Below, in pieces: positions 14,433 through 41,843 of a stretch of 64,000 nucleotides of DNA. Source of the DNA: an uncultured Clostridia bacterium (lineage in GTDB: Bacteria > Bacillota > Clostridia > Christensenellales > UBA3700). The notes under the pieces were generated by a model. The model had not been told where the DNA came from, did no database searches, and was given only the letters and a program-made list of their open reading frames with translations. The stretch lies in the NCBI GenBank assembly GCA_945992255.1, contig CAMFVQ010000058.1, forward strand, positions 25,292-89,291, given 5' to 3'. Each line of letters begins with the position of its first letter. Position 1 is the first letter of the stretch. Made by a program: the position numbers and the translations under genes.

Positions 14433-14470
14433 AAAAAAAAATCCACTCCCGTAGGAGTGGATAATTTTTC
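14433..14470. terminator. Bidirectional terminator
   Basis: Stem ATCCACTCC / GGAGTGGAT with loop CGTA, flanked by A8 and a T-run. Confidence 0.65.
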
Positions 14471-17877: not shown

Positions 17878-18102
17878 TTACTCAAGATTAGCCCGTACCT
17901 CTACGAACCACTCCGGGCGTAAACTTGTAGCGTTTCCGTCGTTAAGTTCGTTGATCTCCTCCAAAGTTTTACCCTCAAGGGCATTACCCCAGCTCTCTAA
18001 CGCAAAATCTACGTCTTGCTGCGTAAGAATACCGGCCTCTTTATCTTGGTTAAGGGTTACAAGTAGAGCCTGTGTACTGAATACCTTTTTTGTTTTTTCC
18101 AT
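17878..18102 (-). CDS. Phage hypothetical protein
   Basis: ORF with a GAGGAGG SD. Overlaps the 3' end of the RT ORF. Confidence 0.45.
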   Translation of the reverse strand: MEKTKKVFSTQALLVTLNQDKEAGILTQQDVDFALESWGNALEGKTLEEINELNDGNATSLRPEWFVEVRANLE

Positions 18103-19150
18103 TGCGTTTGTCCTCCTCGCTTACTATTTTTGTAAGTTTGCCCTTTTTAACTTTAGGCTTTATGTACTTTAGGTAATAGTTTTTACCGTTTGCTATATGG
18201 TGCAGCCAGCCCATCCGGGAGAGTGCCGACCGAGCTTGTCTTACGGTAGGCTGTCCTCGGCGTTCTATGCGCCCTATTACGCGCGTCATATCGTATAATA
18301 TATAGTTGCGTAGCTCCGTATGGTCTCTATAAAACTTAAAGCCTAAGTAGTCTATGGGCCTACTGTCTATAGGGTAAACTTGCCAGTTCCTTTTAAGCGT
18401 AAGCCCGTAGCCGTTCTGGTTAAAGTATTCCTCTACAGCTTTGCGCACCTTGTGTAGTTTCCTTTTGTTAGTATCGAGCATAAGCATATCGTCTACGTTG
18501 CGTACGTAGTAATTTACCTTTAGCTCTTGTTTTATATAGTGATCGAACTCCTCAAGGTAAAAATTTCCTAGCCATTGTGAGGTGTAGTAGCCTATAGGTA
18601 GACCGCTCTCGCCTCCGTGGTCTATTATTTGGTCTAGGAGAGCTATAACTCTCTTGTCCTTTATCTTTTTACGGAGTAACCACTTTAGCTTGTCCTGGTT
18701 TATGCTTTGGTAAAATTTCGATATATCGCATTGGAATACGTGGCGTATCGCCCTGTCGTTCCTTAGTGCTTTCTCTATGTAGTTCTTACCGTATATACCG
18801 CCTCTGCCGGGTACGTTTCCTACGGAGTACTCGTACATACCTTTAGTAAAAATCGCTTGCAGCGGTAACATAACGCACCAGTGTATTATTTGGTCTGGGT
18901 AGTAGCAAGGTACGGAGATCTGCCGTACTTTTTGCTTTGGGCCCTCCCGGCGCTCCATGTACCTGTCGTGCCCTAGCTCTACGTGCTCCGCTAAAAGCAT
19001 AGCCTGTATGTCTATGGCGTACTTATCCATATTGTTGAGTATTCGTTTTACCGACCTGTACTCTCGCTTTTTCTCTGCGGAGCGCCGTATAGCCTCTTTT
19101 ATATTTTCAATGTCGCAGACTTTCTCATAAATATAGCCCTGTCGTTTCAT
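18050..19150 (-). CDS. DGR reverse transcriptase
   Basis: RT motifs including LPIGYYTSQWLGNFYL (the DGR-type IGxxxSQ) and VRNVDDMLML (catalytic DD). Located immediately 3' of a TR that pairs with a VR. Confidence 0.9.
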   Translation of the reverse strand: MKRQGYIYEKVCDIENIKEAIRRSAEKKREYRSVKRILNNMDKYAIDIQAMLLAEHVELGHDRYMERREGPKQKVRQISVPCYYPDQIIHWCVMLPLQAIFTKGMYEYSVGNVPGRGGIYGKNYIEKALRNDRAIRHVFQCDISKFYQSINQDKLKWLLRKKIKDKRVIALLDQIIDHGGESGLPIGYYTSQWLGNFYLEEFDHYIKQELKVNYYVRNVDDMLMLDTNKRKLHKVRKAVEEYFNQNGYGLTLKRNWQVYPIDSRPIDYLGFKFYRDHTELRNYILYDMTRVIGRIERRGQPTVRQARSALSRMGWLHHIANGKNYYLKYIKPKVKKGKLTKIVSEEDKRNGKNKKGIQYTGSTCNP

Positions 19151-19276
19151 TGTTACTTACTTCTTTTACTCTCAAAGCCTTTCGAGGTATCCTACTAGGC
19201 TCTGCCTCTATCGATATTTTTTGCCAAGGGGCAAGGATAAGACAAGCCAAATTATTTTTGTACTTAGTTTTTGTAA

Positions 19277-19387
19277 AAGATTGCGACCGCCGATGTTGGA
19301 GTTCGTGTTCGTGGCGGAATTGTTCGCGTTGAAATACCAAGGCCCAGCGTTGAGCGTGTTATTCCAGTTGCCACCTACGTTGACCAT
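19277..19387 (-). repeat. DGR template repeat (TR)
   Basis: 111 nt aligns without gaps to 19484-19594. All 13 mismatches fall at TR adenines on the minus strand. TR is rich in AAC codons. Confidence 0.9.
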
Positions 19388-19440
19388 ACGGCACGGCTTG
19401 CCTTACCCTATATTTGTTGTTGCTGTTTTACTTACCTAGG

Positions 19441-19462
19441 GCTAGGGGGTAATCCCCCTAGC
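19441..19462 (-). promoter_or_regulatory. GC hairpin just 3' of the VR (DGR target-recognition-type hairpin)
   Basis: GCTAGGGGG-TAAT-CCCCCTAGC on the plus strand: 9 bp stem, 4 nt loop. It lies 7 nt after the target gene's stop codon. Confidence 0.7.
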
Positions 19463-19468
19463 TACCCC

Positions 19469-20902
19469 CTATAGAGGTCTCCTAAGAAGGCGACCGCCGA
19501 CGTTGGAGTACGTGTTCGTGGCGGAATTGTTCGCGTAGAAATACCAAGGCCCAGCGTAGAGCGAGCTATTCCAGCTGCCACCCACGAAGACCACTCTATA
19601 CGTGCTACTTGAGTAATAGCCGTAGTCGCAGTAGTATGTAGTGTCTGAGCCACCCAGGTCTGTGGGAACTTGTACGAACGGGTTAGTCGCGTCATAGCCA
19701 AGTTTTTTAACCCTACTGTTGCCTCCAGTTACGCCGTTATAGCTTACTGCGCTATAGTCAGCAGGTAAAGAACCACTTACGTACTTTGTAGGGTCCTTAC
19801 AAACGTAAGGCTTAAGGCTGTTAACCGTTATACCGTCCATCCATTGATATACGTTGCCGTACCAGTTCTCCACGCCTCTGTATTTCATAGCGTGTTTGCC
19901 GTCCGTATTGCTTATCTCGCTACCGCTGGCGGTAAGGACGCCGTCAGTTCTGCCGGAGGCAATAGCGGCGCTGTTGCCGTTTGCGTAGCCGTACATAATG
20001 CTCTGCGCGTTCGTGGTTGCGAATTCTACCTTAAAGAGGTCCTGCAGCATTACGTGCGCCCAGATATCATACTGCTGGTAGCCTGTTCCGTTCGCCTTGC
20101 AGGCGTTACGCATATTGTTTATATTGATATTTACTAAAGGACTTGCTCCGCTTACGCTCTTAGCCAAGCTGGAGGAGCCGGAGGCGGTATACTTACCTAT
20201 GTCTACGTAGTCAAGCTCTACGCCGTTGCCGTCTGTAAAAATAGGGTTGAGTAGCCACGTATCGTCCGGCTTTTGAACGCATATCTCGGTCTTTTTGTAG
20301 CCGTTCTCGTCAAAGGTATAACGCGTATAGTGTTTAGGTACGCGCATAAACACGTTGCCCTTGTCGTCGGTTACCTCCGTTATATCGCTCCAAGGTCTGC
20401 AGTTGTCAAAGTCGCTGGTAATAGATCCGTCAGCGTTAAGCGTGTAGCCAAGCCCCACCGCGCTGTCGCCCCTTGTAAGTGTAGGATTGCTTGCGCCCTC
20501 TCCGGAAACGCTGAATATTTGAGCCTCGCCAAAGTATACGGCTACCGTGTTTGACGTGTTTTCTGGTACGCCCTCCCCGGCCGCTACTACTCTTACGTTG
20601 TGCGTGGCGTTGTCGTTTGGATTTACGTCGGTTAGATCTATCACAAAAGGCACCGAGGCGCCCTCTGCGGTATAGTCTACCGTTTTTACTAGTACGTCGT
20701 CTATGTAAACCTGTACGCCTGTTACGCCGTCTATTAAGCCGTATACCTCTATGCTTATAGAACTTGTCTTTTCTACTCTCGGCCTAGAGGTATATACGAC
20801 CTCGTTACTAAAATTACTGTCCTCGTATCCGTCTGCTGTTACTTTTAGCTTTAGCGTATACTGTCCGTATGGTAGCTTAAGCTCCTCTAAGTTTTTCTCC
20901 AT
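19469..20902 (-). CDS. Tail-fibre/receptor-binding protein with a C-terminal FGE-sulfatase/C-type-lectin-like domain (DGR target)
   Basis: Start at MEKNLEEL behind AGGAGG. GVENWYGNVYQWMDG and GGSW motifs. The VR lies at the extreme C-terminus. Confidence 0.8.
   Translation of the reverse strand: MEKNLEELKLPYGQYTLKLKVTADGYEDSNFSNEVVYTSRPRVEKTSSISIEVYGLIDGVTGVQVYIDDVLVKTVDYTAEGASVPFVIDLTDVNPNDNATHNVRVVAAGEGVPENTSNTVAVYFGEAQIFSVSGEGASNPTLTRGDSAVGLGYTLNADGSITSDFDNCRPWSDITEVTDDKGNVFMRVPKHYTRYTFDENGYKKTEICVQKPDDTWLLNPIFTDGNGVELDYVDIGKYTASGSSSLAKSVSGASPLVNININNMRNACKANGTGYQQYDIWAHVMLQDLFKVEFATTNAQSIMYGYANGNSAAIASGRTDGVLTASGSEISNTDGKHAMKYRGVENWYGNVYQWMDGITVNSLKPYVCKDPTKYVSGSLPADYSAVSYNGVTGGNSRVKKLGYDATNPFVQVPTDLGGSDTTYYCDYGYYSSSTYRVVFVGGSWNSSLYAGPWYFYANNSATNTYSNVGGRLLRRPL
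19484..19594 (-). repeat. DGR variable repeat (VR), encoding the C-terminus of the tail-fibre protein
   Basis: Encodes ...VVFVGGSWNSSLYAGPWYFYANNSATNTYSNVGGRLL. The TR counterpart reads MVNVGGNWNNTLNAGPWYFNANNSATNTNSNIGGRNL. Confidence 0.9.
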
Positions 20903-20911
20903 GTGCACCTC

Positions 20912-29814: not shown

Positions 29815-29833
29815 ATCGTACTCCTTTATTTTG

Positions 29834-29904
29834 TGCGTGGGGCAGGGGTCGAACCTGCAACCGGCGGAGGTGCAGCCGTGCTTTACCGCTTAAGCTACCC
29901 ACGC
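29834..29904 (-). tRNA. tRNA-like element with a non-canonical anticodon arm (possible pseudo-tRNA)
   Basis: Perfect 7 bp acceptor stem (GCGTGGG/CCCACGC), D arm GCTT/AAGC, and T arm GCAGG-TTCGACC-CCTGC. The anticodon stem is CGGCT/CGCCG with a U-C mismatch, the loop GCACCTC lacks U33, and the variable loop is only 3 nt. Confidence 0.45.
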
Positions 29905-29917
29905 ATAAAGCTAAACG

Positions 29918-30337
29918 CTAAGTACGCTTAGCTATTTCAGCAGATATACGGGCCTCTATCCTATCGTCCATACCTTTAAGCCCACGTATAGCCTTGGATA
30001 TAAAGTGCGTACCTGCTATAGCTCCGCTGTGATCGTCCGCAGGTTTCCCGTAGTTAAGTATATTTGCTATCTTTTGATAGGGCTCCCCATTTGGAGCGTT
30101 GCCCTCAAATTCGGCGCTATACCCGTACCAGCTACGACGACCTTGCGCTTTGTTTACTGTAAAGCTTGCTTTTAAGGAACCTGTCCTTATAGGTACTCCT
30201 GCCTGTATGCGGTTCTCATAGGTTTGCACCTCGTCGTCTATAACGCTCTTAAAAGCTTGTTCTGTAGCCTCTCCTATTTCGAGGGTGCCAGTAAGGAACT
30301 CTGATAGCTCCTTACTGATTCCGTCGTTCCAGCTCAT
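29918..30337 (-). CDS. HK97 gp10-like head-tail/tail-completion family protein
   Basis: Start at MSWNDGI behind GGAGGG. The ...RTGSLKASF... segment resembles the gp10 family weakly. Confidence 0.35.
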   Translation of the reverse strand: MSWNDGISKELSEFLTGTLEIGEATEQAFKSVIDDEVQTYENRIQAGVPIRTGSLKASFTVNKAQGRRSWYGYSAEFEGNAPNGEPYQKIANILNYGKPADDHSGAIAGTHFISKAIRGLKGMDDRIEARISAEIAKRT

Positions 30338-30532: not shown

Positions 30533-31081
30533 TTATGGTTTGACCGTTCCCAGCGCCCTGCGTACTTTGCCATTTTTTTTTACGTCGTCGTCGTATGCAA
30601 CGGCGAGAGTTAAAAGCTCAAAGGCTAGGGCTGTGTCCTCGTATACCTCTTGCGGTAATAGCTCGGTGCCATAGCCCATAGCCTCTGCTCTGTCTTGCTC
30701 CGGCAGAGCGCAAATACGAGTACAGATCATTATGAGTTCTATAAGGTCAAGACCTGCGTCGCCTTGTGGCTTAGTGTCGTTAGCCGCCTTAAGCATCTCA
30801 AACAATGGGCCTGCGTTCTCTTTCGCTATACTCAGCTTAGCGTCTGCGTCCTCTGCCTCTTGGAGCTTGTATAAAACCTCCATATTCTCCGGACGTACTA
30901 TGCCTAGCAAGCCGTTTTTATACTCCGCCAAAGCGTCTGTAAGTTCTACGCCTGCTAGAGACTTAAAAAGCGGAAACAGGTACCCGTTAGCCATAAATAC
31001 TATGGTATCCTCCTCTCCAGTCTCTGGGTCCGTATATGAATAGGTTTTTATAAATTTTCTTGTGTATCTTTTCAAAGCCAT
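30533..31081 (-). CDS. Tail assembly chaperone (gpG-like)
   Basis: Lies between the major tail and tape measure genes, is acidic, and has a slippery tract near its 3' end. Confidence 0.65.
   Translation of the reverse strand: MALKRYTRKFIKTYSYTDPETGEEDTIVFMANGYLFPLFKSLAGVELTDALAEYKNGLLGIVRPENMEVLYKLQEAEDADAKLSIAKENAGPLFEMLKAANDTKPQGDAGLDLIELIMICTRICALPEQDRAEAMGYGTELLPQEVYEDTALAFELLTLAVAYDDDVKKNGKVRRALGTVKP
30573..30581 (-). promoter_or_regulatory. Putative -1 programmed ribosomal frameshift slippery tract (A9)
   Basis: The minus strand reads GTA AAA AAA AAT, 13 codons before the chaperone stop. An A AAA AAA heptamer is present. Confidence 0.6.
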
Positions 31082-36505: not shown

Positions 36506-38164
36506 TTACTCTCCTATAAATTCTAGGGTATGGTCGCAGACGCCTACGTAAGCGTCGAGTATTACGGCGAACCCGTCTATTTTCCTCATGTTATTTTTGC
36601 CGGCCTTAGCTGGTAGTGGGTTCTTATTCCTAGGATCCTCCTCTACCGCTACGTTAGTCATACACCACTTTACAACCGGATTGTTGTTATAGTTTATCCG
36701 CTTTTCTGCTAGCTCCGCCTCTAGCTTTTGAAACGGAACCGCCAGCGTCTTACTACCTTGCTGGCACCTTACGAGGCAGTCCCCCTCGCTAAAGCCGTCG
36801 GCTATAAAGTCGTTGACTAAGTATCGAGCACTATAGGCGTCGTAGTATATCCACCTATAGCAAATATCGTACTTGTCGACCATTTCGTCTACGTAGTCTA
36901 CTATAGCCCTGTGGTCTATGGAGTTCTTGCCTGCAATTCTTATGTAGCCCTGCTCTACCCAGAGCCTCCAGACGTTACCCATTCTGGGATCGTTTTGCGC
37001 TTTCTCGTAAAAGTCCTTGCTTATCCAGAACATTACCTCTACGCAGAACTCCAGGTTCTCGCTATCCCAGAATAACGTACAGAACGCCGTAAGGTCGTTT
37101 GTAAGCGACAAATCAAATCCGCCTATAGCGTCGTATCCCTTAAAGCGTTTTATATCAAAGGTGCGCTCGTTGTTTATTACGTCGTACTCAAAATATGCTT
37201 TTTCGCTGATTCCACCTAGGTTAAAGTGCTTAGTTTTTACGGCGTTTAAGCTCTGAGGCTTAGCGAGTGCGTCTTGTACTATACTGCGCAAGCGCTCTAT
37301 AGGGAATACCGTACCTAGGCTAGGATTTACCTGTTGCCAATGCTGCTCGTTCATCCAGTCCTTAGGGTCGTCTAGTTCATACAAAAGCGAGAACTTACGC
37401 TCGTCCTGAATAAGCCCGTCTAGTATGGCTTTACTGTTTTCGTGCTCCGTATCAAAGAGGGCGCCTCTTTTGTATCCGTTTGTACTGAGCATTATAAACA
37501 AAGGGTCGGCGCAACCTATTTGTCCGTTATAGAGTATGTCGTATATATCTTGGTCGAGTTCGTGTACCTCGTCTAGTATAACGACCTTGGGTAGCTTGCC
37601 GTCCAGCATATCCGGCTGATTTGCTAGCGCCATAAAAACGCTAAAGCCGTTTGGTCTTATATTCTTTATATCGTACTGCCGGCGCTTTAGCATTGCCTTT
37701 AAGTCTGGGCTTTGGTCTAGCATATTAGCTGCCTCGGTCCAAACTATTTTACTCTGCTGCAAAGCGTTAGCTGCAGAGTATACCTCGTTACCTTTTTTAG
37801 CTGTTTCGTAGAGAGCCACCGGCGCGATCATAGTTGTTTTACCGTTTTTTTTGCCGACCTCTATAAATACCTTTTGAAACTTTCGGCGGTCGCTACCTCT
37901 CTCTACAATTCCGTATATAGCGGAGAGCGCCGCCTTTTGCCAAAGCAAGTAGCGTATAGGCTTACCTCTCCACTCGTCTTTGCTCTGTCGGCAGAACCGC
38001 TCACCAAATTCTATAGGTTTGCTCGCTAGGGCTGGGTTATAGTACCACCGAGGGTCTTTACCATGGATTATAGGTAGTAGAGCCTCGTACTGTTTAATAA
38101 CGTACTTTGGTATATCTATAGTCCCTTGCTTACCAGCCTCTAGGTACTCCTCAATCCATACCAT
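36506..38164 (-). CDS. Terminase large subunit
   Basis: Walker A-like EVGKKNGKT and a VILDEVHE Walker B. Size and position fit a large terminase. Confidence 0.85.
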   Translation of the reverse strand: MVWIEEYLEAGKQGTIDIPKYVIKQYEALLPIIHGKDPRWYYNPALASKPIEFGERFCRQSKDEWRGKPIRYLLWQKAALSAIYGIVERGSDRRKFQKVFIEVGKKNGKTTMIAPVALYETAKKGNEVYSAANALQQSKIVWTEAANMLDQSPDLKAMLKRRQYDIKNIRPNGFSVFMALANQPDMLDGKLPKVVILDEVHELDQDIYDILYNGQIGCADPLFIMLSTNGYKRGALFDTEHENSKAILDGLIQDERKFSLLYELDDPKDWMNEQHWQQVNPSLGTVFPIERLRSIVQDALAKPQSLNAVKTKHFNLGGISEKAYFEYDVINNERTFDIKRFKGYDAIGGFDLSLTNDLTAFCTLFWDSENLEFCVEVMFWISKDFYEKAQNDPRMGNVWRLWVEQGYIRIAGKNSIDHRAIVDYVDEMVDKYDICYRWIYYDAYSARYLVNDFIADGFSEGDCLVRCQQGSKTLAVPFQKLEAELAEKRINYNNNPVVKWCMTNVAVEEDPRNKNPLPAKAGKNNMRKIDGFAVILDAYVGVCDHTLEFIGE

Positions 38165-38167
38165 AAG

Positions 38168-38728
38168 CTAGTCCCCCATAAACTCCTCCGCCGCGCTCTT
38201 GTTTGCTTTTTCTTGTCTTACTGCGTAAGCTGCTCGGCCGGCTGGAGTTAGCGCTAGCTGCTCTGCTAGAATTCGTACCGTTTGGACGTGGCGGTTATAC
38301 TCTCGTAAGAGAGGGTTAACCACGTGCTTTATGGTGCTGCTAGAACTGCGCTTAATAGGTTGTCCGGAGGGTGTAGCCTCCGTCTTTGAACCTGTGGAAA
38401 TATCCGGCGTCATAAGACTGTACGGCGCTACTTTCTCGCTACCTTTGGCCCACTCGTCGTATAGCCGTTGCGTTATATCTACCTCTACGCAGTAGGCAGT
38501 AAGTACCGCTATATCCAGGTCGTTAAGTATCTGCATATCAAGCTCTCTATAAAGCTTTACTACCCGGCGCCACTCTTTTTTTGCCCCCTCCGCTAGGTTC
38601 TTGGGGCAACGCAAAATTGCAGAGTTGCACTTAGGCGTGTTTGCCTTTTGGCGCTCTATAGCTCCTGGGTCCTTATAGGTATCGTTGTTTTTTAGCTCCG
38701 CCGGTATAGCGTTACGTCCTCTACTCAT
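38168..38728 (-). CDS. Terminase small subunit (P27 family-like)
   Basis: Start chosen at MSRGRNAIP...LK, typical of the P27 family. Lies upstream of the large terminase gene. Confidence 0.65.
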   Translation of the reverse strand: MSRGRNAIPAELKNNDTYKDPGAIERQKANTPKCNSAILRCPKNLAEGAKKEWRRVVKLYRELDMQILNDLDIAVLTAYCVEVDITQRLYDEWAKGSEKVAPYSLMTPDISTGSKTEATPSGQPIKRSSSSTIKHVVNPLLREYNRHVQTVRILAEQLALTPAGRAAYAVRQEKANKSAAEEFMGD

Positions 38729-39059
38729 TCTTTTTCCTCGGCATCCCGTTCGCGTCAAAAATCAAGCCGGGAGCCAGCACCTCGCTCTCTCCGTGTATTT
38801 TATTATGGCAAGTCCTACATAGTAGGATTAAGTTATCCTCGTTAAGCGCCACGTTAGGGTCGTTTATGTTTTCCTCGGTTAGCTCCTCTTTATGGTGGCA
38901 ATGGAGCTGGCCGTAAATCGGCTTGTTGTGGTCGACGTTCTTGTTGTGGCAGCACTCGCATATCCAGCCCTTACTTGCCGCGTAGTACGCGCTGAGCTTA
39001 CGCCATGCAGTACTGTTGTAGAATTTATTTTTAGCCGGCGAACGGTCCTCATATCTCAT
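38721..39059 (-). CDS. HNH endonuclease
   Basis: CxxC...HCHHK...N...CRTCHNKIH motif. Adjacent to the terminase genes, as in HK97-like cos phages. Confidence 0.85.
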   Translation of the reverse strand: MRYEDRSPAKNKFYNSTAWRKLSAYYAASKGWICECCHNKNVDHNKPIYGQLHCHHKEELTEENINDPNVALNEDNLILLCRTCHNKIHGESEVLAPGLIFDANGMPRKKNE

Positions 39060-39063
39060 ACTC

Positions 39064-39882
39064 CTATCCTCTTATTTTTTCCGCCGTTTTACCCGTATAC
39101 TTTTCCCAGCGGTCTACTATGCAGCTTGCGTACTTATCGTCAATCTCTACTATGCAGCACTTACGGCCCAGTTGCTCGCAGGCTATCAGCGTGGAGCCGG
39201 AACCGCCAAATAGGTCTAATACGGTATCTCCCTTTTTTGTGCTGTTCGCTAGGAGCCTTGCTATAAGTCTTACGGGTTTCATAGTAGGGTGCGTTTCGCT
39301 TGCCGCTGGCTTATCCTCTCGGATCACCGTCTGCGGTTCTGCGTTTAGTTTGTCTTGGAGCTCCATACAATAGGCAAGTAGCTCGGTCTTTTTCATTTGC
39401 TTTATATTTATAAGCTCGTCGCTCTCCTCTACAGTCGTCTTAGTTCTATCCGGCGTAAAGTAATGCGCTGCACCCTCTTTCCAGCCGTATATACACGGCT
39501 CGTGCTTTTGCTGATAGTCCTGCCGTCCTAGCACCATAGTATTTTTTACCCATACTAGTTGCTGGCGTACTCTAAGGCCTACGCTGTTAAGAGCGTCGTA
39601 AAAGGTCTTAAGCTTTTTGTCAGCTAGCCAAATATAGAACGAGCCTCCGGGCTTTAGGGCGTCGCCCATATTACGAAACGCTCGCTGCAGGAACCGCTGA
39701 AACTCTGGCTCGTCCATAACGTCGTTGTCTATGCGCAAGGCGTCTTTAGTCTTGCCTACGTAGTCGACGTTATATGGCGGATCGGTCATTACGCAGTCGG
39801 CGGAGCCCCCCCCGTTACTACACGTACCGTTTCTGGTTCTGTGCAGTCTCCGCACACCAAAGTATGCGTACCGAGTTGCCAA
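39064..39882 (-). CDS. DNA methyltransferase domain (beta-class N6A/N4C), out of frame with the upstream ParB-like domain
   Basis: TDPPYNVDY (motif IV) comes before FGGSGST (motif I). The reading frame overlaps the end of 39789-40331 at a G8 tract. Confidence 0.8.
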   Translation of the reverse strand: MATRYAYFGVRRLHRTRNGTCSNGGGSADCVMTDPPYNVDYVGKTKDALRIDNDVMDEPEFQRFLQRAFRNMGDALKPGGSFYIWLADKKLKTFYDALNSVGLRVRQQLVWVKNTMVLGRQDYQQKHEPCIYGWKEGAAHYFTPDRTKTTVEESDELINIKQMKKTELLAYCMELQDKLNAEPQTVIREDKPAASETHPTMKPVRLIARLLANSTKKGDTVLDLFGGSGSTLIACEQLGRKCCIVEIDDKYASCIVDRWEKYTGKTAEKIRG

Positions 39883-40331
39883 ACCTCTCCGTATTTTACA
39901 AGCGACGGCGCCGCCGTCACGTTGTAGTCGTCCTCTTGTACGGTGCTTGCCTCGTCCTCCTCAAGTATCAAGCCGAATAGCTCAAGAGCTCTTGCGTCCG
40001 TAAGCTTGCAAAGCTCAGCCTGTACTAGGTCGTCGTCCAAACCTGTAGCAAGGTTTGTAGCGTTATGCACCATAGTGTACTCCCGGCGCTGTTCGTCCGT
40101 TAAGTGGTCGAGCCTTACGCAGGGAACCTCTACGTATCCGAGGCGCTGAGCCGCAAGCGCTCTACCGTGCCCCTCTACGATTATATTATCCTTACCCCAT
40201 ACGCCGACGGGATCGTTAAAGCCGTAGCGCTTTATGCTTTCCGCTATTTGTTCAAGCTGCGCCTCGGTGTGTATCTTGGTATTACCGTCATAAACGGTTA
40301 AGTCTGCTATCCGGATCTTTTCTATTTTCAC
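39789..40331 (-). CDS. ParB-like nuclease domain ORF (N-terminal part of a ParB-methyltransferase)
   Basis: The NDPVGVW...IIVEGHGR motif matches the ParB N-terminal domain. GTG start behind GAGGTG. Ends 7 codons after the G8 tract. Confidence 0.75.
   Translation of the reverse strand: MKIEKIRIADLTVYDGNTKIHTEAQLEQIAESIKRYGFNDPVGVWGKDNIIVEGHGRALAAQRLGYVEVPCVRLDHLTDEQRREYTMVHNATNLATGLDDDLVQAELCKLTDARALELFGLILEEDEASTVQEDDYNVTAAPSLVKYGEVWQLGTHTLVCGDCTEPETVRVVTGGAPPTA
39806..39813 (-). repeat. G8 homopolymer at the ParB/methyltransferase frame junction
   Basis: Eight C on the plus strand. G9 or G6 would fuse the two ORFs into ...VVTGG(G)SADCVMTDPPY... Confidence 0.9.
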
Positions 40332-40459
40332 TTTGCACCTCGCTTTTTAGAGGTTTTCCCTCTACTTATATAAGGACTTTGAGCATTTTTTATTTTTCCG
40401 TTAAAAATATGTACAAAACTCCAGCGCCGTTGTTTTATAAAAAGTTAGAGGGGTGTAGA

Positions 40460-40467
40460 CCCCCCCC
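40460..40467 (-). repeat. Second G8 homopolymer, abutting the SNF2 stop codon
   Basis: Eight C on the plus strand, in the 135 bp gap upstream of the ParB-methyltransferase gene. Confidence 0.9.
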
Positions 40468-41843
40468 TATGCTCGGCCATGCGCCTCAATTCGTGCTTTT
40501 ACAGCTGCTATAAGTTCGTCCTGGCTTATGCTCTTAGCCTTTAAGGCTCTTAGTACGTCCTCGTCTACGGTATCCTCCGCCACTAAGTGGTGAATAATTA
40601 CTGCCTGTTGCTGCCCTTGTCTATAAAGCCTTGCGTTTGCTTGCTGATAAAGCTCTAAGCTCCAGGTTAAACCGAACCATACTATTATGTTACCGCCTGC
40701 CTGTAGGTTAAGTCCGTGCCCCATGCTTGCAGGGTGCGCTAGTAGTACTTGTATCTTGCCGGCGTTCCAGTCGTCTTGGTCGTCGTCTGTAGCCAAGGTC
40801 CTAGGGTTGTACTTACTAAGCCTTGCCATAAGCCTGCTGTAATCGTGTTGGTAGTTATAAAAGACCATTATAGGCTTGCCTGGATTGTCCTCTATAATCT
40901 CCTCTAAGGCGTCTAGCTTTACGTCGTGTATCGTTGTTACGTTCTTGGTTTCGCTGTATACTGCGCCGTTAGCCATCTGTAATAGCTTATTAGTTACTAC
41001 CGCTTGGCTGCCTGCTGTTACTACCTCTTTGCTATCAAGCTCTAATATACACTCCCTTTCCAGCTCGTCGTACTGCTCTCTTGCTATAGTAGGTAGCTGA
41101 AGTTTAATAACGTTGTCTATTCGGTCCGGTAGCTTCAAGTAGTCCGCGGCCTTTAGGCTTATGGCTATATCGCCTATAGCTTTGTATATAGCCTCCTCTG
41201 CACCTTTCCTGGGTACGTACTCGTATACGACGGTACGGTTCCTACGTCCTGGAGTAAAGTACTTATCGCGGTAAGCTGTTATAGTCTTGCCTAGTCGTTC
41301 GCCTTGATCCAGTAGATATATCTGGCTCCAGAGGTCCATAAGTCCGTTGGGACTTGGCGTTCCTGTCAGCTCTATAACTCTGTCAGTTATTGCGGCTACT
41401 TTTCTTAATGCCTTAAAGCGTTTACTCTGGTTACTCTTAAAGCTACTGCTCTCGTCGATCACTATAGTATCAAAAGGCCACTTTTTTTGCTTTATGCAGT
41501 ACTCTACAAGCCATACGACGTTTTCTCGGTTTATTAGGTATATATCCGCGTCCGCCTTTAGGCCTCGTATACGTTCTGCCTCTGTGCCTAGTATCTTGGA
41601 TGCCGTAAGGTGTCTTAAGTGGTCAAACTTTTTGATCTCGTCCGTCCAGGTCTTACGGGCTACTCGCAGCGGTGCTATTACCAGTACCTTACAGCACTCA
41701 AACCTATCAAACATAAGCTCGTTTATCGCGGTCAAGGTGCATACCGTTTTGCCTAGGCCCATATCCAGTATGGCTATAATCTTTTTGGTATCCAGCATAC
41801 GCCCGGTTGTGTAGTTCTGGTAGTCATGGGGTTTGTATTTCAT
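40467..41843 (-). CDS. SNF2-family helicase
   Basis: Motif I LDMGLGKT, motif II VIDESS, and the C-terminal helicase motif QANARLYRQGQ. Confidence 0.85.
   Translation of the reverse strand: MKYKPHDYQNYTTGRMLDTKKIIAILDMGLGKTVCTLTAINELMFDRFECCKVLVIAPLRVARKTWTDEIKKFDHLRHLTASKILGTEAERIRGLKADADIYLINRENVVWLVEYCIKQKKWPFDTIVIDESSSFKSNQSKRFKALRKVAAITDRVIELTGTPSPNGLMDLWSQIYLLDQGERLGKTITAYRDKYFTPGRRNRTVVYEYVPRKGAEEAIYKAIGDIAISLKAADYLKLPDRIDNVIKLQLPTIAREQYDELERECILELDSKEVVTAGSQAVVTNKLLQMANGAVYSETKNVTTIHDVKLDALEEIIEDNPGKPIMVFYNYQHDYSRLMARLSKYNPRTLATDDDQDDWNAGKIQVLLAHPASMGHGLNLQAGGNIIVWFGLTWSLELYQQANARLYRQGQQQAVIIHHLVAEDTVDEDVLRALKAKSISQDELIAAVKARIEAHGRA

Follow-up and report, generated by a model that had tools for sequence, protein, structure and literature searches.

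Methylase genes switched by simple sequence repeats, the phasevarions, are known for Type I, Type III and Type IIG systems (PMC13076061, PMC12707154, PMC4889913). Examples are the Type III mod and Type I hsd genes of Haemophilus, Neisseria, Helicobacter and Moraxella and the Type IIG gene cj0031 of Campylobacter (PMC4889913, PMC13076061, PMC12707154). In phages, hypermutable polyG tracts have been described in receptor-binding genes of Campylobacter Fletchervirus (Sorensen et al. 2021, Cell Rep 35:109214, as summarized in PMC12823448 and PMC12633550), and contingency loci have been described in agt and rIIA of phages T2 and T4 (Gomez, Barrick and Waters 2025 preprint, PMC12633550). A polyG in the Bpm methylase gene (bbp30) of Bordetella phage BPP-1 was noted by Liu et al. 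2004 (J Bacteriol 186:1503) and, according to the account in PMC12633550, was not followed up. Fusions of a ParB-CTPase fold to an N6_N4 methyltransferase are enriched in prophages, and an anti-defence role has been suggested for them (PMC12704722); Wolbachia prophage WO encodes the methylases Met1 and Met2 (PMC3089641). We searched the literature and found no earlier description of a poly-G switch that is conserved family-wide in phage ParB-methylases. Here we analyzed a ParB-methylase gene of a prophage that lies in a 64,000-nucleotide stretch of DNA from an uncultured Clostridia bacterium (contig CAMFVQ010000058.1, positions 25,292 to 89,291), hereafter the window. The gene is interrupted at a run of eight G, and the comparisons reported below suggest that this tract is probably a slipped-strand contingency locus that switches an orphan phage methylase, which is OFF in the window.

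The eight G lie on the minus strand at 39806-39813, in the context ...GTA GTA ACG GGG GGG GCT CCG CCG ACT GCG TAA. The sequence-only reading had placed them where two open reading frames (ORFs) overlap, and rereading the sequence returned the same tract and the same two ORFs. The 5' reading frame (39789..40331, minus strand; 180 amino acids [aa]) ends in ...VRVVTGGAPPTA (also written ...CGDCTEPETVRVVTGGAPPTA) and spans a ParB_N-like domain (approximately residues 1-120), a linker, and the first methyltransferase beta-hairpin and helix (residues 150-173). Past the tract, this frame runs through 4 out-of-frame codons (A-P-P-T-A, with the first Ala in place of the third Gly of the ON allele) to a TAA stop at 39791-39789. 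The 3' reading frame (39064..39805, minus strand) carries the methyltransferase core, from motif IV DPPY through motif I FGGSGS, and the ORF called at 39064-39882 (minus strand) contains SADCVMTDPPYNVDY. The start chosen by the gene caller, an ATG at 39789-39787 that overlaps the stop of the 5' frame (TAATG), yields a 241-aa fragment of the 3' frame beginning with MTDPPY. The tract itself (G8 = OFF) corresponds to a Gly-Gly(-Gly) loop at residues 174-176, and in this lineage the gene is in frame (ON) at G9. Editing the tract in silico bore out the earlier claim that G9 or G6 joins the two ORFs: G9 gave a single ORF of 422 aa and G6 a single ORF of 421 aa. The frame stopped after 186 aa with G7, 180 aa with G8 and 187 aa with G10.

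Across the 64-kb window, we counted 22 G/C runs of length 5, none of 6, one of 7 and two of 8; within the ~40-kb prophage, no G/C run reaches 6 apart from the two G8 tracts. Since an order-3 Markov simulation of the window gave a mean of 0.12 runs of at least 8, the two G8 tracts exceed the chance expectation. When all window homopolymers were tested, the tract at 39806-39813 was the only one at which a change of +/-1 joined two interior ORFs, the remaining homopolymers flagged by this ORF-merging scan being ordinary gene borders. The gene has a hallmark of a contingency locus, namely a mutable homopolymer (at least 7-8 nt) inside an ORF where a change of +/-1 shifts the frame.

The repaired protein matched Pfam PF01555 (N6_N4_Mtase) with 116.6 bits over residues 179-404 (cut-off 26.7), as did all 44 aligned homologues, and PHROG phrog_498 (DNA methyltransferase) over residues 1-418 (E 8.7e-132). 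Its N-terminal 135 residues matched ParB-like PHROGs (phrog_620, E 2.5e-36). Pfam ParB_N (PF02195) scored 19.9 bits in the window protein (E 7.8e-4), under the 26.3 cut-off, and matched 27 of the 44 homologues at E <=0.001. ParB box II (GxxR), here E53-G54-H55-G56-R57, is invariant among the 44 homologues, as are motif IV TDPPY (residues 183-187) and motif I FGGSGS (residues 375-380). Because motif IV stands ahead of the S-adenosylmethionine motif I FxGxG, a circular permutation, the enzyme was assigned to the beta class, and DPPY rather than SPPY makes N6-adenine the most likely target. By these motifs and profiles, the gene product is predicted to be an orphan phage beta-class DPPY methyltransferase fused to an N-terminal ParB/Srx-like domain.

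The sequence-only reading had put the break at the junction of the ParB and methylase domains, a placement that did not survive structural comparison. The closest solved structure, CcrM (6pbd; sequence match E 3.9e-13), aligns from residue 152, where the query stretch QLGTHTLVCGDCTEPETVRVVTGGGSADCVMTDPPY begins. Foldseek returned N4CMT, M1.HpyAVI, M.BceJIV, CcrM, RsrI and MboIIA as best matches (E ~1e-13, probability 1.0). In the AlphaFold model (mean predicted local distance difference test score, 79), the ParB-like domain extends to approximately residue 120 and is followed by a linker; the methylase core then opens with a beta-hairpin (150-159) and a helix (166-173). The tract codons, residues 174-176, form the loop between this helix and the strand 178-183 that leads into DPPY. 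Because the CcrM alignment starts at residue 152 and the model places the tract codons in this loop, the tract lies ~25 residues inside the catalytic domain, and the 241-aa fragment would lack part of the catalytic core.

Close relatives were found only via protein-cluster look-ups, and the window was compared to them by pairwise BLAST. A blastn search against phage records matched the helicase alone (64-69%), no relative above 56% was present in a one-genome-per-species collection, and the exact 20-base pattern around the tract had 0 matches in IMG/VR and 0 in JGI metagenomes. The cluster representative, P0001, is a single 422-aa protein with 97% identity, and the other matches are 241-aa C-terminal fragments. 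Six full-length sequences (~16-24 contigs) and six 241-aa fragments (~24 contigs) make up the 90% cluster, and about half of the contigs of this phage species are out of frame at the tract. N-terminal fragments of the cluster have G7 (177 aa, ending ..MGGIR; 8 contigs), G8 (180 aa; 14 contigs) or G10 (187 aa; 1 contig), and the G7, G8, G9 and G10 alleles all occur inside this one 90% cluster. Among the individual loci, the intragenic tract was G9 in L001, where the gene is intact, G8 in L002 (a metagenome-assembled genome from NCBI) and G11 in L003, both split, and G9 in L004-L006, which are in frame at the tract. L007, at 76% identity, has G8 and is in frame in a different context.

The same sequence background was found in both states. 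The protein P0142 equals the G9 repair of the window gene residue for residue and occurs on at least 15 contigs from independent samples. Over 4-7 kb, ten P0142 loci shared 98.6-99.4% identity with the window, from which they differed by no consistent indel other than one extra G in each of the two tracts. The compared 7.3 kb also includes 12 A/T runs of 6-8 nt, among which a single difference was seen, in one locus. Conversely, the exact 180-aa and 241-aa products of the window occur on 4 contigs (NCBI, ENA, Logan). Both window fragments share their amino acids with the ON allele P0142, so that the two halves of the OFF allele are undamaged. P0150, an OFF allele on a 47,313-bp contig, and P0151, an ON allele on a 47,314-bp contig, are otherwise identical. 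Among the near-clonal contigs L003-L006, which come from one study, 10 alignment columns differed in 7 kb, 8 of them in G/C tracts. A comparison of tract lengths in related prophages, which the sequence-only reading had proposed, thus gave lengths that differ between near-identical genomes and that cover all three frames.

Homologues were normally one fused gene, and the pattern that would have refuted the sequence-only reading, two separate genes lacking a homopolymer at the junction, was not seen. In all 11 lineages examined (55-97% aa identity), a pure G run occupied the same codons while the flanking nucleotides had diverged. Tract lengths in the divergent lineages were G9 in L022-L029, G11 in L030, G9 in L031-L033 and G9 in L034. 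The codon alignment of the 11 lineages showed GGG-GGG in both tract columns in 11/11, whereas codons were mixed in 24 other conserved Gly columns. GGG makes up a minority of the glycine codons, 3 of the 30 in the window gene, 2 of which are in the tract; GGC, GGA and GGT dominate at every other glycine. Judged by these codons, the repeat is conserved beyond what the protein needs. In the wider family, the loop usually has one glycine (LMDGxxADL), and GGG is confined to the nearest relatives. Homologues at 44-47% identity had no tract at this site, nor did the methylase of Faecalibacterium phage FP_Epona (MG711462, L297) at its DPPY loop (LMAGNKLDL).

G/C runs also turned up near tract-free methylases. 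FP_Epona (L297, locus 132 and 1676) has a C7 that precedes the methylase gene by ~150 nt, and the neighboring small terminase gene has a G9 at 34 nt from its start. In a Bacteroidales phage whose methylase is 44% identical and lacks the tract, two G tracts (L008, 5956-5981; L016, 5956-5987) are found ~1.85 kb past the gene end and ~2.95 kb from the methylase start; one of the two tracts measures G6 in one copy but G12 in the second. Split methylases of Streptococcus pyogenes prophages were considered as the same phenomenon and rejected: they result from a CGA-to-TGA nonsense change near the 3' end and have no homopolymer.

Furthermore, we searched for the tract with a DNA pattern that is blind to the reading frame, G7+ N{20,33} GAYCCNCCNTAYAAYGT, i.e., a tract 20-33 nt ahead of the DPPYNV codons; as it needs at least G7, shorter alleles are missed. 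The pattern had at least 120 matches in IMG/VR and at least 120 in the metagenome collection (at least 240 loci). Control patterns at the same site gave 0 (C7), 6 (A7) and 4 (T7) matches in IMG/VR. The counts that follow apply among the matches listed. Of 221 unique loci, 203 were classifiable, 141 in frame (ON) and 62 frameshifted (OFF), and OFF loci made up 31% of the viral and 30% of the metagenome set. By tract length, the OFF fraction was 19% at G7, 23% at G8, 48% at G9 and 61% at G10 and longer. The methylase motif GD[SCA] lay at most 30 residues upstream in 197/203 loci, and a GHGR-like ParB box was found in 173/203. Since GD[SCA] was present in the shifted frame in 60 of the 62 OFF loci, the OFF loci represent breaks of the same gene at the same place. 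The loci fell into 111 clusters at 95% identity and 35 at 60%, with G+C contents from 27 to 70%. Among the 18 clusters at 95% that had at least two members, 12 contained more than one tract length and 10 contained both states. As a control in the same loci, we scored how often a change of +/-1 merged long ORFs: the rate was 2.6% for A/T runs of 7-10 nt, 5% for the remaining G/C runs and 30% for the methylase tracts.

Conservation of the tract at the DNA level, length variation in all three frames and the fused state of the homologues together support slipped-strand phase variation, one of three options that the sequence-only reading had left standing. The G run would encode a tolerant Gly loop just ahead of the strand entering motif IV and would behave as a contingency locus, with slipped-strand mispairing during replication altering its length by one or two bases. 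In the window lineage, G9 would then give the 422-aa enzyme (ON), and G7, G8, G10 and G11 would shift the frame (OFF), leaving a ~180-aa ParB-domain fragment and at best a core fragment without the first hairpin and helix. The OFF state would be expected to abolish methylation, and switching within populations would be frequent and reversible.

Several observations weigh against a switch. The loci L022-L044 were retrieved via intact proteins and are biased to ON, only the cluster and DNA-pattern censuses being frame-blind. All length differences are differences between assemblies, some of which might reflect errors of the consensus at G runs. Both window tracts lack one G relative to the ten closest relatives, as would also result from a systematic homopolymer undercall in the window. 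The three gene-carrying contigs of more than 90 kb, which at that length include host flanks, are all OFF; this could mean plain inactivation in lysogens, although n=3 is too few. Finally, in the 87%-identity lineage L003-L006, a short G run of the ParB domain has gained one base (G4 to G5) at ~130 nt from the start of the methylase gene (GTAGGGGGTGTGGGG); this insertion is fixed on all four contigs, results in 56-aa and 379-aa products and looks like decay rather than switching. We also noted that L003 and L006 have one A fewer (A4 to A3) in the Walker A codons of the helicase.

The last two of these points favor the alternative that survives best, in which the tract is a neutral mutational hot spot in a dispensable gene and the OFF alleles are early pseudogenes instead of a switch state. 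Nonsense mutations that sometimes cut the Streptococcus pyogenes prophage homologues elsewhere in the gene point the same way. However, a synonymous change would remove a costly run, yet GGG-GGG is retained in every one of the 11 lineages, and, at 60% identity, no fewer than 35 separate clusters have the tract. The OFF alleles moreover lack secondary damage, and an identical background occurs in both states. Plain decay is disfavored because of this codon-level conservation and the undamaged halves of the OFF alleles, and we consider it unlikely.

A homopolymer error of sequencing or assembly, with a true G9 and an intact gene in the window, would explain why each of the two tracts is short of its counterpart in the ten closest relatives by exactly one base, and long G runs are error-prone on several platforms. 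Yet the exact split products recur on the 4 contigs from three sources (the longest contigs found with different genes being 96,524 and 90,901 bp), the 12 A/T runs of the compared region agree with the relatives, and the remaining interior genes of the 64-kb window show no break at a homopolymer. The tract is frameshifted more than ten times as often as the A/T runs of the same loci, at equal rates in two collections. Even a uniform G9 in the window genome would leave the family-wide polymorphism unexplained. A simple assembly error, another of the options raised from the sequence, is on these grounds very unlikely.

The remaining option, programmed recoding, holds that a single allele yields the full-length enzyme, or a fixed ratio of fragment to fusion, because ribosomes shift by -1 at G_GGG_GGG or RNA polymerase slips on the G run. 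In the zero frame, the G8 allele reads AC G GGG GGG GCU, a formal X_XXY_YYZ heptamer on which a -1 tandem slip gives exactly the G9 product ...VVTGGGSADC..., the TAATG stop/start overlap permits coupling or re-initiation, and long homopolymers are known sites of transcriptional slippage; the G8 allele may therefore be somewhat leaky. As an account of the family, recoding nonetheless seems the least probable of all, given that ~70% of the alleles are already in frame (141/203 among the matches listed), that OFF alleles occupy both alternative frames with no single frame relation conserved, that the 100 nt past the tract showed no significant stimulatory fold (z -1.28), and that G-only heptamers are not known to work efficiently as shift sites in bacteria.

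We then placed the gene in its context. On the minus strand, a family A DNA polymerase, a VapE-like primase/helicase, a VRR-NUC protein and an SNF2 helicase are followed by a 135-nt spacer and the methylase, and then by an HNH endonuclease, the small terminase, the large terminase and the portal. The SNF2-family helicase (40467..41843, minus strand; Pfam SNF2-rel_dom, ResIII and Helicase_C) is the last gene of the replication block. The HNH endonuclease (38721-39059, minus strand) is packed straight behind the methylase gene, and the packaging block continues with the small terminase (38168-38758, minus strand) and the large terminase (36506-38164, minus strand). The order methylase-HNH-terminase was identical in all relatives examined. 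The region at 52.6-55.2 kb carries a repressor-like gene and a serine recombinase, with host tRNA genes beyond. The tyrosyl-tRNA synthetase of the host shares 80-82% identity with those of metagenome-assembled genomes named Christensenellales or Clostridia. No restriction partner for the methylase was found among the neighboring genes; the downstream HNH protein was considered for this role and rejected, as it belongs to the HNH-terminase packaging set. From this gene order, the methylase is the predicted first gene of the packaging (late) block of a cos-type temperate phage in an uncultured gut Clostridia (Christensenellales-like). The earlier description of a fused ParB-methylase as the usual architecture was right; its assignment to the replication module was not, as the gene opens the packaging block.

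The spacer contains the second G8 tract, at 40460-40467 (minus strand). Its position had been given correctly in the sequence-only reading and its purely intergenic location had not, since the tract begins with the final base of the helicase TAG stop and forms the 5' arm of a hairpin. This terminator-like hairpin (40446..40469, minus strand) reads TAGGGGGGGG TCTACA CCCCTCTA followed by ACTTTTTATA, i.e., an 8-bp stem and a T run, and it also appears in the minimum-free-energy fold. An equivalent post-helicase hairpin was present in 10/11 lineages, and it is a predicted intrinsic terminator closing the helicase/replication block. In the L003-L006 lineage, the hairpin takes the form G8-ATA-C8 or G7-ATA-C6. 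The upstream tract ranges from G7 to G11 in relatives and was G9 in all six ~99%-identical loci that cover it. We considered it as a general partner of the switch and rejected this, since only 5/166 loci outside the window's clade have it. The upstream G8 is a separate, length-variable feature without a demonstrated link to methylase expression. A scan of the 135-nt spacer for sigma-70-like promoters gave no candidate that passed. In L003-L005, a third tract (G9) lies in a small hairpin before the ribosome-binding site, ~45 nt upstream of the methylase start; the equivalent in the window, at 40352-40364, is GAGGGAAAACCTC, and the tract of L006 is interrupted (GGGGGGAGG).

Just downstream of the upstream tract, the spacer also holds a conserved element, ACAACGGCGCTGGAGTTTTGTACATATTTTTAACGGAAAAATAAAAA (40386..40433, minus strand; AACAACGGCG...TACATATTTTTAACGG), whose AACAACGGCG motif is kept in all lineages. 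Seven independent contigs end inside this element (L026, L027, L034, L040, L041, L043 and L044, with their first bases). At the end of L041, TCTTCCGATCT, an Illumina adapter remnant, is fused to GTTTTATACAT at window position ~40419. Because seven contigs end there, one of them with an adapter at ~40419, and because the element is conserved, it is probably the cos site, the physical end of the virion DNA. A cos site at this place would make the methylase the first gene of the packaged genome.

Slipped-strand switching might benefit the phage by bet-hedging. Methylated progeny would escape classical restriction, and unmethylated progeny would escape methylation-dependent restriction or spare lysogens the cost of an orphan methylase. 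More speculatively, and with confidence short of even, we suggest a family-wide, selected epigenetic bet-hedging device, in which each burst would mix methylated and unmethylated genomes, the free ParB-domain protein of the OFF alleles would have a role of its own, and the switch would open both the packaged genome and the late operon. Some progeny of such a burst would survive in hosts with classical restriction and others in hosts with methylation-dependent restriction.

Other features of the prophage were recorded along the way. A diversity-generating retroelement occupies 18050-20908 (minus strand): the reverse transcriptase ORF lies at 18050-19150, the template repeat at 19277-19386, and the variable repeat at 19484-19593, which is the 3' end of the target (tail-fibre-like) ORF 19469-20908. 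The template and variable repeats differ by mismatches of which 12/12 are at template adenines. A minus-strand A9 at 30573-30581 (GACGTAAAAAAAAATGG) lies near the 3' end of the tail-module ORF 30533-31081; a +1 or -2 change there lengthens the ORF by 64 codons, making it a candidate tail assembly chaperone slippery site. ARAGORN predicted a tRNA-Gly with the unusual anticodon ACC at 29833-29904 (minus strand), inside the tail module. A non-coding C7 (14363-14369) and an A9 (14433-14441, then a hairpin) are found near the probable left border of the prophage.

Repeat-driven methylase switching is a classic device of pathogens, and phage contingency loci have been proposed only recently (T2 and T4). 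If switching at the methylase tract is real, stochastic variation of the phage's own epigenetic mark occurs in many temperate phages, abundant gut phages among them, which bears on host range, on restriction/anti-restriction arms races and on the possible reprogramming of lysogens by prophages. Annotation is affected as well, since tract-bearing methylase genes routinely appear in annotations as two ORFs or pseudogenes. Tests are straightforward, as tract length is accessible to amplicon sequencing and the phenotype to long-read methylomes.

Compared with the phasevarions, the locus is alike in having a simple sequence repeat within a methyltransferase ORF, slipped-strand ON/OFF states, and sister genomes that would differ in methylation. 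Phasevarions are, however, chromosomal restriction-modification genes of host-adapted pathogens, whereas the window gene encodes an orphan beta-class enzyme with a ParB-like domain and is carried by temperate phages (here of gut Clostridia). With the ParB/N6_N4 fusions and with Met1 and Met2 of prophage WO, it shares a ParB_N-like N terminus and a PF01555 C terminus; in contrast to the present locus, the reports on these proteins (PMC12704722, PMC3089641) do not mention a homopolymer or phase variation. The tracts of Fletchervirus and of T2 and T4 are likewise homopolymers in phage genes that give rise to reversibly frameshifted progeny, which has been read as bet-hedging against host resistance or defence. 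Their targets are receptor-binding genes, agt and rIIA, and here the target is a DNA methylase. The T2/T4 tracts are short (at least 6 nt) and were defined by experiment, whereas the evidence for the methylase tract is comparative. Unlike any of these phage tracts, the methylase family holds G7 to G19 at the same codon position across hundreds of unrelated contigs.

Closest in kind is BPP-1 Bpm, also a phage-encoded orphan beta-class DPPY methylase with a G8 in its ORF, from a phage that likewise has a diversity-generating retroelement. In the BPP-1 genome (NC_005357, L300; 42.5 kb), we found that the sole G/C run of at least 7 is the G8 at 29922-29929 in the adenine methylase gene bpm, where it encodes P-G-G right before motif I (..PGGVVLDPFAGSG..). 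Bpm differs in being a 251-aa protein without a ParB domain, 24% identical to the window methylase, and in having its tract before motif I and not before motif IV. The Bpm tract is that of one genome, whereas the tract of the window methylase occupies a conserved, family-wide site.

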